From the NCBI GenBank assembly GCA_963793305.1, contig CAWBZV010000012.1, forward strand, positions 32,001-96,000: a stretch of 64,000 bases of DNA, in the 5' to 3' direction. Both the position numbers and the translations under genes were made by a program. Shown here piece by piece: positions 43,855 to 47,365 of this stretch (position 1 is the stretch's first letter; every line of letters begins with the position of its first letter). The DNA is from an uncultured Gemmatimonadales bacterium. GTDB taxonomy: Bacteria > Gemmatimonadota > Gemmatimonadetes > Gemmatimonadales > Gemmatimonadaceae. Below the pieces are notes generated by a model. It made no database searches and had not been told where the DNA came from. It saw only the letters and a program-made list of their open reading frames with translations.

Positions 43855-44791
43855 ATGCACTTGATCGCGGCCCTAACGCTGGCCGTCGGCTTCCGACAGG
43901 TGATGGTCGGACCGATGGCCGTCAATATCTGGTATCCGAGCGACGGTCACACGACTCAGGTACCGGCTGGCTTGTATAGCCAGGCGGTCGTGGTGAACGG
44001 GCCGATTCGCGGACGGGACCTGCCGCTCATCGTCATGTCGCACGGCGTGAGCGGGAGCGGCTTCAGCGACTACAACGTCGCGCTGGCGCTCGCCAATGCC
44101 GGGTATGTCGTCGCTGCGGTGACCCACCCGGGCGACAACTATCAGGACCAGAGCGCCGTCGGCAAGAGCCAGAATCTCATCGACCGCCCGCGCCACATCC
44201 AACGACTCGTCGATTACATGGTGACGCACTGGCCGGTCGACACCAAGCGCCTCGGCGCCTTCGGCTTCTCCCTCGGCGGCTTCACGGCACTGGTGCTGGC
44301 GGGTGGCACGCCGGATCTCAGGCAGAGCGCGCGGCTCTGTCGCGAACGCCCGGACGCACCGGAGTGCGCATTCGTCGCGCAGCGCCACGGCAACCCACTC
44401 GATTCGACCGCGGTGCCGGACTCAGTGTGGGATCACGACGCGCGCATCAAGGCCATCGCGCTCGCGTCACCGGCGGTGCTGGTCATGTTCCGATCCGGCG
44501 GCCTGCGCGACGTGCACGTCCCGGTGCTTCTCTGGCGCGGCACCGCCGACCCAAACGCACCAGACGCGTGGAACGCGGCCGTGCTCCGATCGGGACTGCC
44601 GATCACCACCCGAGGAGCACGTCGTGCCGAACGCCGGCCACTTCGTGTTCACGCCGCTATGCAGCGACGCGACTGCCAAGCAGGTACCGTTTCTCTGCGA
44701 CGATCCACCAGGCGTAGACCGCGCCGCGGTCCTCCGTGAATTCGAGCCGAGCGTGGTCGCGTTCTTCGACGCACATCTCACATCCCATTGA
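43855..44791 (+). CDS. Alpha/beta hydrolase (dienelactone hydrolase / PAF-AH-like); +1 frameshift near 44602
   Basis: SHG, GFSLGG nucleophile elbow, GTAD; catalytic His (NAGHFVF) lies in the next frame. Confidence 0.85.
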
Positions 44792-44816
44792 CGCGCACGC
44801 CATCGGGCGCGGCGCC

Positions 44817-45007
44817 ATGACGAACGTAGTTGGACCGCGTACGAGGTCGCCAAACGATCGCGCGGTCGTCTTGCGGAGCGTTCGCTCTATCGTTTGGTCG
44901 AACGCCGCGGACAAGTTGAATCCGTGTCCGCAAAGACGTTGGATACGCTCTGTGAGATCCTTGGCATTGGACCCGGCGAGCTTATCGAGGTTCAAAGCGC
45001 CCGGTGA
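44817..45007 (+). CDS. Small XRE/Cro-C1-type HTH regulator lacking an in-frame start (frameshifted or truncated)
   Basis: Frame from 44819 reads DERSWTAYEVAKRSRGRLAERSLYRLVERRGQVESVSAKTLDTLCEILGIGPGELIEVQSAR*; ATG 44817 is out of frame by one base. Confidence 0.7.
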
Positions 45008-45117
45008 GGCAATCACGCTGAGTCTTACCTCGCCTAGCGAGACTCTCTTGCGATCACAGCCGCATGATTGCAAGATCGGACGTGACCACATCGCGGTTTC
45101 AGCTCCGGGACGCGGGC

Positions 45118-45146
45118 TTGGCGCCCGGCCGGATCAACCGTATAAT
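45118..45146 (+). promoter_or_regulatory. Sigma70 promoter driving riboswitch and phosphatase
   Basis: TTGGCG-N17-TATAAT. Confidence 0.75.
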
Positions 45147-45167
45147 CTGGCACCAACAATTCGCGAA

Positions 45168-45268
45168 TGTGTCTAGGGTTCCGCCAATCATCGCGATTGG
45201 GTCCGTGACCGAGCGACACCAACGGCTCGCGATGAGCCGCACAACTTACGGCATAAAAAGCCTGAGGT
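45168..45268 (+). ncRNA. ykkC-yxkD family riboswitch, variant (not guanidine-I consensus)
   Basis: P1 GTGTC/GACAC enclosing TAGGGTTCCG, hairpin CCAATC/GATTGG and GACCGAG; P2 CGGCTC/GAGCCG; linker CACA; P3 CTTACGGC-ATAAAAA-GCCTGAG; lies in a 5' UTR. Confidence 0.85.
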
Positions 45269-45296
45269 CCTTCCTACCCAAACGGTCGGAGCAGCC

Positions 45297-46964
45297 TTGG
45301 CTTTGCCTGAGATCGCCGTACTCGCCGCGTTGTCGCTCATGACAAAAGTGCCGGATCGCACACCGAATCTCATCATCGTGATCTCGGTCGACATGCTGTC
45401 CGGCGAGATCATGGACCGCTACACAGACCATCTCCCGGGAGGATTGGGGCGCATCCTCAGAGAAGGCGCGGTCTTCGAGAATGCTTACCAGGAGCACGCA
45501 TTCACCGAAACGTGCCCTGGTCACTCCACGTTGCTCTCCGGACGACATCCCTCGTCCACCGGAATAGGCACCAATAGCTGGATCGACTCGATCACCGGCA
45601 AGCCGATCTACTGCGTCCAAGACGACCACGTCAGCACCATCGGTGTGCCGCCAGGCACGCCTGGATCGAGTGACGTGCAATTTCGGGGGACCACGTTCGG
45701 TACCTGGCTCAAAGACCAAATCCCGGGCAGCAGAGTCTTTGCGGTAGCGGGCAAGGATCGGTCGGCGATCATGATGGCCGGCCCCAAGACCGATGGCGTG
45801 TACTGGTTCCAGGAAGGATTTGGCTTCACTACGTCGACGGCGTACGCGCCGGCGATCCCACCATGGCTGGTTGCCGTCAATGCGAGGCTCATGCGGCGTC
45901 TGCGCACCGAGACGCTCACCTGGGTGCCCATCGGCCCGTCCGATGGACTCACCTATCCGGGAGAATGGAAAGCCGACATCACGGGCGCGCCGATCGTGAG
46001 TCGCCTCCCACGGCTGATCCAGACGCAGGGATTTCCGGATGCCCCGAAACCCGGCTTCGTGCTCAATGAGACCCAGGACGGCGGCTTCTGGAACCGATAT
46101 CGGGCCTCGCCGTTCTGGGACGATGACATCTTCGATGCCGCCGAAGCCTTGATCTCGCACGAACACCTTGGCGACGGCCCGCATCCCGATCTCCTCTGCC
46201 TCGGACTGTCGGCCACGAACGCGGCCGAACACGCGTTCGGCAACGCCGGACCGGAAATGCAGGATCTCATTCGTCGGCTGGATCGGCGGCTCGGCCTCTT
46301 CCTCGACAGAGCCCAGCACAACGGGAAGCGAGTCGTCGTCGTGCTCAGTGCCGATCACGGCGGTCTGGATTTCGCCGAGCGACTGAGGAGTCAGGGCGTT
46401 CCGGCGCGGCGGGTCGATGTCGACGCTTGGATGAAGGAGCTGCAGGCGCGCGTGCAGCGGGAGCTCGGCACCGACCAGCCACTCGTGCGTGACGGCGACG
46501 AACACATCACCGTCGACCACCAGGTCGCGGCAACCCTCGGTGATGTCCGAGACGTCATCGCCCGGATCACGTCCGTCGTGCGAACGATGCCGGAGGTCGC
46601 CGACGCGGCGTCGCTCGAGGAACTTCGCGCGCTACCCGAACGCCGCTTCGACGATCCGCGTGAGGAGGATCTGCGCTATCGGCTGAAGTTCGCGGCGGCG
46701 CCCGGACGATCCGCCGACATCCTCTTCGCCTTCAATCCGCTCGTCGAGCGAGACGGTCCGCCACGGCACGATCCGGCGCAGCACGGCACTCCCTGGGATT
46801 ATGATCGTCGGGTCCCGATCATCTTCTGGGGACTCTGGAGAGCCGAACGGCGCACCGATCCGGCGAGCACCGTGGATATCGCGCCGACTCTGGCGAGAGC
46901 TCTGGGCATCACGCCAGCACAACATCTCGACGGCGTGCCACTCACCCTCACTCGTCTGCGCTAG
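45297..46964 (+). CDS. Alkaline phosphatase superfamily protein (PafA / nucleotide pyrophosphatase-like)
   Basis: [20 protein letters not shown] (Thr nucleophile), [22 protein letters not shown]. Confidence 0.9.
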
Positions 46965-47365
46965 GCGGACGACGGTGATGCGTCGCCTGCTCATACGAGT
47001 AAGCGAGTCGAAATAGCCCCCCCTCGCTCCACGGCCGGCCAAAGAGCTGGAGGCCGGCCGGGAGCCTGTTTCCCCGTAGGAACCCCATCGGCACCGTGAT
47101 CGCGGGGAACCCCGTCGCCGGCGAGAAAATCTGGTTATTGTCGCCCGCCGGCGTGTTGAGATCGCCGATGAGCCGCGTTGGGTTGCTCCACGTCGGGTAG
47201 ACAGTGCGTCCAACTTGCGCTCATCCATGAGCCGCGATACCGCGACGCGCAGATGCGCCCGCACGTCTTCGTCGGTCCGACGCCGGCGTCTCCTCTGGGA
47301 CCCGATCGAATTGTTGCGCATCAGCGAGACGCGCCTCGATCGATGGGTGAAATTTGCCGGACTCT
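46948..47365 (-). pseudogene. Amidase (amidase-signature family) C-terminal remnant
   Basis: SGKFHPSIEARL / [10 protein letters not shown] / VYPTWSNP...[12 protein letters not shown]...[34 protein letters not shown] over three segments with two frameshifts; no N-terminal catalytic part. Confidence 0.8.

Follow-up and report, generated by a model that had tools for sequence, protein, structure and literature searches.

The RNA leader of the hydrolase gene at 45297..46964 in the 64,000-nucleotide stretch of DNA analysed here (the window) is confirmed by comparative sequence analysis as a real member of the ykkC family. It probably belongs to the orphan subtype 2d or to a sub-branch of it, an assignment that rests on a marker nucleotide, on the register of the P3 helix and on the partner genes. 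Our overall explanation, which we put forward tentatively, is that it acts as a 2d-type translational ON switch for a small phosphonate. All features of the window described below lie on the + strand.

Results

The aptamer, of ykkC subtype 2 and 2d-like, occupies 45162..45268 and is defined by a match to RF00442 (Rfam Guanidine-I), by covariation and by a model of our own. A first-pass annotation, made from the sequence alone, had described a complete ykkC-yxkD architecture, and this holds at every named motif: CTAGGGTTCCG lies at 45173-45183, GACCGAG at 45207-45213, the ACA linker at 45241-45243 and P3 at 45244-45267. The Rfam covariance-model search proposed there as a check aligned 45162-45268 with RF00442 over its whole length (model positions 1-107/107; 45.3 bits, E 6.9e-7), the sole such match across the genome; the score falls short of the gathering score of 63 bits, and at that threshold Rfam has no match in the whole window. 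Folded as a single sequence, the RNA is modestly better than its shuffled versions (z -1.5 to -2.1), and it is because of the comparative support, that is, the compensatory changes among relatives, and not because of lone-strand folding that we take its structure to be real. In an alignment of 25 sequences of the sub-group around the window RNA, 95.6% of cells are paired and covariation reaches 0.300 against 0.124 after shuffling (0 of 500 shuffles as high), dropping to at most 0.083 once pairing partners are slid; in the wider family of 53 sequences it is 0.268 against 0.147. The same 25 sequences, from three phyla, share 47 invariant columns, the P3 portion of which is partly circular since P3 letters, but not those of P1 and P2, were part of the search patterns. 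With the model built from these RNAs the window RNA, itself among the training sequences, scores 102.3 bits.

P1, with P1a and P1b, spans 45169..45219 by the RF00442 match and covariation, with G48 at 45213 and C49 at 45214 (T. mathranii numbering). The P2 hairpin follows at 45223..45239, drawn from folding and covariation, with four of its five pairs changed on both sides, and the ACA linker plus P3 take up 45241..45267, where C75 is 45242, A77 is 45244, C78 is 45245 and an extra base sits at 45249. The 3' side of P3 is one base short, which leaves the bulged G96 of other subtypes without a counterpart in a register inferred by alignment with the T. mathranii row (H19) in the accessible part of PMC9881157 Table S2 and from column counts.

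Comparing the pocket letters with the known subtypes, the second check that had been proposed, identifies a non-guanidine subtype-2 RNA unlike 2a, 2b and 2c. C49 is the marker of subtype 2, and G48, C49, C75 and C78 make contacts in the PRPP aptamer, according to the accessible text of PMC6031431; the window RNA has C49 and keeps G48, C75 and C78, which together form the 5-phosphate and M1 metal site of that aptamer, and C75 is a C in 49 of the 53 family sequences. With guanidine-I (RF00442) it shares the whole-model match, the P1-P3 architecture and the lack of P0. It departs from guanidine-I, as had been claimed for its P3 and tail, in the sub-threshold score (45.3 vs 63 bits), in the A46 that follows GAG, which is a C at 45214, in the S-turn G88/G89/G90, replaced by one variable base and one G, and in having no guanidine exporter or carboxylase as partner. 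G48, C49, C75 and C78 are common to it and to the 2b (PRPP) and 2a (ppGpp) RNAs (PMC6031431, in part), whereas it has, in the inferred register, no G96 bulge, no P0 helix (G6, G104, G105) and no G6/A101/A103/G104/G105 pyrophosphate module, carries A for C77 and the extra P3 base, and is translational in its predicted control, not terminator-based. The remaining 3'-strand position where G96 would be is T in 20, G in 19, A in 8 and C in 6 of the 53 sequences, again with the register inferred. G6 is missing at all 15 sub-group loci; the window RNA has A at position 6 and no AGG tail, and its 5'/3' duplex (P0) has a calculated energy of +0.1 kcal/mol against about -9 in the 2A78-type EamA group described below. 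The (d)ADP/(d)CDP subtype 2c, represented by the five rows that best fit a 2c model in the accessible part of PMC9881157 Table S2 (H23, H24, H52, H57 and H81), resembles it in the six bases that separate the linker and the upper P3, in the shortened 3' strand and in having hydrolase partners; in contrast, 2c has G49, CCUAUU, a long conserved P0 tail and NUDIX or HAD hydrolases, where the window RNA has C49, ACUUAC, no P0 and no NUDIX or HAD partner.

Subtype 2d is defined by its EamA (phn_DUF6) and TauE partners and has an orphan ligand (PMC7266159; PMC5912903, both in their accessible portions). The window RNA shares with the 2d candidate described there (section 16 of PMC7266159; PMC5912903) the ykkC fold, a pyrimidine at 49 and the lack of a conserved 5'/3' (P0) extension, and RNAs with its P3 precede phn_DUF6-like EamA and TauE genes; such a gene is not found at the window locus, but it is at 40 of the 55 genome loci that share this P3. 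Because the P3 type is common to EamA/TauE-linked RNAs, the window RNA is most likely 2d or a sub-branch and not a separate new class. The likeness to 2d is set by the published descriptions, and none of rows H14-H101 in the accessible part of PMC9881157 Table S2 best fits 2d. What distinguishes the sub-group is A77 together with a U after G100, found at 15 of 15 sub-group loci vs 2 of 40 EamA/TauE loci (L091, L093), and a set of partners (GNAT, MFS, PhnA and a PhoK-like enzyme) none of which is given for 2d in the accessible portions of PMC7266159 and PMC5912903.

A pattern for the P3 type returned 65 genome loci, of which 10 without a match to the 5' core were dropped and 55 counted; set aside from a 59-locus set were chance CTTA matches in guanidine-I and PRPP RNAs and a shorter, xpt-linked PRPP type. 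First genes, assigned by motif and Pfam-checked on a subset at loci that are species representatives and not independent events, are EamA of 2A78 type (16), phn_DUF6-like EamA (16), TauE (8), GNAT (8), MFS (3), PhnA (2) and PhoK-like (2). Within the sub-group GNAT leads as first gene, at 8 of 15 genome loci, and a narrower pattern gave 21 metagenome loci with GNAT at 9, MFS at 6, PhoK-like at 5 and one cut off. Looking for homologues before phosphatases, as had been advised, found the same RNA at 4 of 5 loci encoding relatives of the window enzyme; the RNA is, however, not phosphatase-specific. At two loci (L003 and L004, the same as L125 and L127) a GNAT gene stands between the RNA and the PhoK-like gene, and there the latter is broken over two frames, at differing places, which may be long-read errors.

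The sub-group, new here, spans Gemmatimonadota, Acidobacteria and Eremiobacterota. It is thinly spread: searches with our own model matched the window's genome alone among 151 Gemmatimonadota genomes and three among 151 Acidobacteriota genomes (the seed, an EamA-linked variant and L171), and the viral contigs searched gave no match. One Eremiobacterota RNA (L111, among the ten loci dropped from the count), with an altered 5' core, an intact P3 and a downstream gene that was not recognised, looks like a true, diverged copy. Another ykkC variant (L172; G278:C1:333986-334088) precedes an EamA gene and has a different, five-base P3 5' strand and a P0-like tail. Of the 16 loci with 2A78-type EamA genes (L067, L073, L074, L078, L079, L082, L085, L092, L095, L105, L107, L110, L115, L117, L119 and L129), 13 have P0 and the AGG tail. 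The family is mixed, and this group may sense something else and possibly forms a separate orphan class within so-called 2d.

TIGR03340, 'phosphonate utilization associated', is the best-scoring model for all eight phn_DUF6-like EamA partners tested, at 97-127 bits, all far below its cut-off of 288. Of 229 picked neighbouring ORFs, 196 were scanned with Pfam, and none belonged to a C-P lyase, PhnW or PhnX family; two PEP_mutase neighbours were discarded as phosphonate genes, their best score being methylisocitrate lyase. Six of the eight GNAT-first genome loci have no hydrolase within 3 kb, and the nearest solved relatives of the GNAT have no phosphonate link. MFS homologues on plasmids were set aside as a clue to cargo, their neighbours being LysR and SDR genes or an ars operon across IS26, and a likeness of the MFS partner to fosmidomycin exporters was not confirmed. 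A GNAT of the riboswitch-linked type is fused to a DinB domain (P0121; L173:11913-12416), and a gene for a similar DinB protein is found some 3 kb away from the riboswitch of L171.

In L084/L126 the gene immediately after the RNA is that of PhnA, which scores 531.7 bits with TIGR02335 (phosphonoacetate hydrolase PhnA; cut-off 407.55 bits) and matches 3szy with E 1.5e-124, and an NPP gene comes next; in L171, too, PhnA follows the RNA with no gene between, here lacking a signal peptide (468.8 bits; L173). The L171 and L084 enzymes are 50% identical and represent two lineages, and both Lys of the K-x-K motif are retained in the PhnA partners. In L137, GNAT and PhnA lie in a single frame behind the RNA, and the 701-aa GNAT-PhnA protein P0123 (522.5 bits with TIGR02335, 84% identity to L137) is one of four long GNAT relatives found; its linker contains a signal-like stretch, so that it may be two genes run together. 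By eye, the PhnA of L084, L137, L164 and L166 carries an apparent signal peptide, as of secreted phosphonoacetate hydrolases. Among 401 genomes of one Acidobacteriota class, PhnA occurs in 18 and the RNA pattern in one, the seed genome, and repeated adjacency of the two is therefore not expected by chance. The phosphonate reading is nevertheless weakened: the window's genome has no PhnA (best 23.9 bits), nor do four of five other RNA-bearing genomes tested have one above the cut-off; at the majority of GNAT loci no neighbour is phosphonate-related; and the RNA is missing from 17 of 18 sampled phnA loci and, among eight enzymes closely related to that of L084, from the loci of six.

The window gene (45297..46964) encodes a 555-aa hydrolase of the alkaline-phosphatase superfamily, PhoK/PafA-like by homology and by its structure model. 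It aligns with PhoK/SPAP (3q3q) at 32% identity (E 3.6e-71), and the model (pLDDT 91.8) superposes on 3q3q with TM 0.83, a figure that speaks for the fold only and not for metal-site geometry; its NCBIfam PhoY and PafA scores, 409 of 1000 and 207.6 of 650 bits, are below the cut-offs. An alkaline-phosphatase/nucleotide-pyrophosphatase gene had been annotated here, of which homology and structure uphold the first half and not the second, and its description as an atypical partner is borne out, no such partner for ykkC being catalogued in the literature searched. The enzyme retains D32, T72, N93, K153, R155, H312, D353, H354 and H496 and thus shares with PhoK/SPAP and PafA the fold, the Thr nucleophile, the Asn/Lys/Arg monoester-binding residues and the Zn2 ligands; it differs from them at Zn1, where N308-x-x-E311-H312 replaces D-Y-[VI]-G-H and the Asp ligand is lost. 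This is a feature of its clade, taken as the best 83 of 120 listed matches (P0001-P0083), in which Asn stands for the Zn1 Asp in 83 of 83 and Glu three residues on in 82 of 83, whereas 34 of the next 37 keep Asp and Gly. Members are named in Gemmatimonadaceae, Bryobacteraceae and Mucilaginibacter, and the one enzyme of this Asn/Glu clade in the 401 Acidobacteriota-class genomes has no RNA nearby. The start region of the window gene resembles that of the GNAT genes, which, with the RNA-GNAT-enzyme order in L125/L127, suggests that the window arrangement arose by loss of a GNAT gene.

A sigma-70-type promoter, TTGGCG-17-TATAAT, precedes the aptamer at 45118..45146 (-35 at 45118-45123, -10 at 45141-45146). 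The hexamers are in place as first annotated and, judged by eye, similar ones recur at the same distance in most of the 20 relatives compared, but by itself the match is at chance level (1 found vs 0.7 expected). Promoter, riboswitch and gene lie within a block of 1,906 bases (45102..47007) that has 98.7-98.9% identity in L001, L142 and L147; homology to the window stops exactly at both its ends and the surroundings differ, and on this comparison the 1.9-kb block is one that moves between sites as a unit. Loci of the family sit among DinB, RibD_C and GNAT genes, regions where shuffling is common, with DinB and RibD_C near both the window locus and L171. Just outside the block, a Cro/C1-type HTH frame (44792-45008; PF13443, E 8.7e-8) has no start codon after the preceding stop and is probably a 5'-truncated gene, and before it an alpha/beta hydrolase (43855-44791) is split over two frames near 44600 by a frameshift or an assembly error. 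A soil RNA contig (depth 2.8) covers 45203-45438; it is uninformative on start, strand or level and deviates, possibly in error, at 45304, inside the second candidate start.

Control had been proposed to be translational, and the predicted OFF fold agrees: a hairpin at 45250..45307 ties up the ribosome-binding site GGAG (45288-45291) and both candidate starts, TTG 45297 and TTG 45303, in pairs with the strands of P3 and the tail. The second of these starts aligns with the ATG of relatives and may be where the gene begins; P0002 is called at the equivalent of 45297. The aptamer tail GAGG, thought earlier to compete with the hairpin that hides the ribosome-binding site, is instead predicted to lengthen it, GAGGU pairing with GCCUU across the start codon. 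In the minimum-energy structures of 23 sub-group loci, P3 or its tail is paired with the region of the ribosome-binding site and start codon, and these structures lie 3-13 kcal/mol below the P3-enforced fold. In the window 16 P3 bases find downstream partners, compared with 4.5 in shuffled sequences, of which 1 in 100 does as well; such pairing exceeds the shuffled mean at 22 of 23 loci and reaches 5 in 100 or better at just five of the 23, the window included. The pairing partner changes along with the tail among loci, and a loop change in L171 is matched in its start region. On these predicted folds, we consider an ON switch likely to be the direction of control.

Discussion

In the mechanism that we propose, the P3 strands would, when ligand is absent, be paired with the ribosome-binding site and start codon; when ligand is bound, P3 would be held docked on P1, which would free the ribosome-binding site and start codon. 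Binding would take place at the metal site of G48, C49 and C78, which takes the 5-phosphate of PRPP. The pocket would keep one phosphate site and lose those for ribose and pyrophosphate, which would suit a small anion with a single phosphonyl or phosphoryl group, and the controlled genes would remove the compound by exporting it (EamA, TauE, MFS), N-acetylating it (GNAT) or hydrolysing it (PhnA, PhoK-like). Our best guess for the ligand, held with some reserve, is phosphonoacetate or a close phosphonate. The first-pass annotation had expected a phosphorylated ligand, which we would narrow: the missing P0 module speaks against a pyrophosphorylated nucleotide, and a phosphonate is suggested over a phosphate ester because the partner set includes PhnA and the phn_DUF6-like EamA. 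Phosphonoacetate is a pyrophosphate analogue (PMC12288639, accessible text) and would suit the ykkC scaffold because the other subtype-2 ligands are pyrophosphates. PhnA, in the accessible text of PMC10574752, shows high specificity for phosphonoacetate, which normally induces it through PhnR, while PhnO, a different GNAT, detoxifies aminophosphonates. If the phosphonate reading holds, PhnA expression here would be substrate-induced as under the LysR-type PhnR of Pseudomonas fluorescens 23F (PMC10574752, in part), with the difference that a protein senses the compound there and an RNA would do so here.

Several other readings have to be weighed. One keeps the 2d-type ON switch and, though rather unlikely in our judgement, would make its ligand a sulfonate (sulfoacetate), a phosphate ester, a phosphoramidate or pyrophosphate. 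TauE/SafE partners at 8 of 55 loci speak for it, SafE being a sulfoacetate exporter, as do TauD beside L077 and L088, the monoesterase residues N93, K153 and R155 retained by the window enzyme and the NPP gene behind PhnA in L084/L126. However, neither a pyrophosphatase nor a sulfonate lyase occurs as first gene in the partner survey, and PhnA, alone among the partners in having a narrow substrate that is known, cleaves phosphonoacetate (PMC10574752, in part).

A small amine or cation, detoxified by GNAT and exporters, the hydrolases having joined as second genes or through GNAT deletion in regions of gene shuffling, would account for the prevalence of GNAT in the sub-group, for the RNA-GNAT-hydrolase order in L125, L127 and L137 and for the GNAT-like start region of the window gene; it would also sit well with the DinB and RibD_C genes near the window and L171, with a block that moves between sites and with the guanidine-like toxic compound proposed for 2d (PMC5912903, accessible text). 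We nonetheless regard it as unlikely: genes of three different alkaline-phosphatase-superfamily lineages immediately follow the RNA with the OFF pairing preserved, the L171 loop change is matched by a start-region change, and the RNA has neither the A46 nor the S-turn that belong to the guanidinium pocket.

Also unlikely is a nucleotide derivative, be it a guanine nucleotide that pairs with C75 (ppGpp-like), an NDP (2c-like) or a nucleotidylated phosphonate. G96 is absent and C75 kept, a combination that allows ppGpp to pair with C75, the P3 strand lengths equal those of the five 2c rows, and NMP-phosphonoacetate is a proposed natural intermediate (PMC12288639, accessible text), with NPP behind PhnA in L084. 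Such a ligand has against it the G missing from position 6 throughout the sub-group, the missing AGG tail and a duplex at +0.1 kcal/mol, and the 2c rows carry G49 and the long conserved tail. Finally, that the RNA is what remains of a guanidine-I riboswitch and no longer functions, as its sub-threshold RF00442 score and its rare, patchy occurrence (1/151 and 3/151 genomes of the two phyla) could suggest, is very improbable in view of the 47 invariant columns (circular in their P3 part), the compensatory changes, and the conserved promoter spacing and start-codon pairing.

The literature searched on ykkC variants and phosphonate riboswitches, subscription papers lying outside its scope, contained no 2d ligand and no PhnA, GNAT or phosphatase partner. 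The RNA is a real ykkC subtype-2 riboswitch, probably the orphan 2d or a sub-branch of it, and what is new is a set of partner genes that makes a phosphonate ligand directly testable. The 2d ligand stayed open because the known partners are transporters of unknown cargo, whereas PhnA is a partner with a narrow known substrate, reached in two enzyme lineages and as a GNAT fusion, and it narrows the 2d ligand question to a short panel of cheap compounds. A riboswitch for a phosphonate, which we hold to be possible though doubtful, would identify what the last orphan ykkC subtype, or one of its sub-branches, binds, and would make the PhoK clade a new phosphonate-related hydrolase. If true, the ykkC scaffold would gain a further class of ligand, the RNA would be a natural sensor of a carbon-phosphorus compound, the phn_DUF6 label would be explained, and there would be hints to the substrates of a GNAT family that is so far uncharacterised and of a PhoK-like clade, in soil bacteria, whose metal site is rebuilt.
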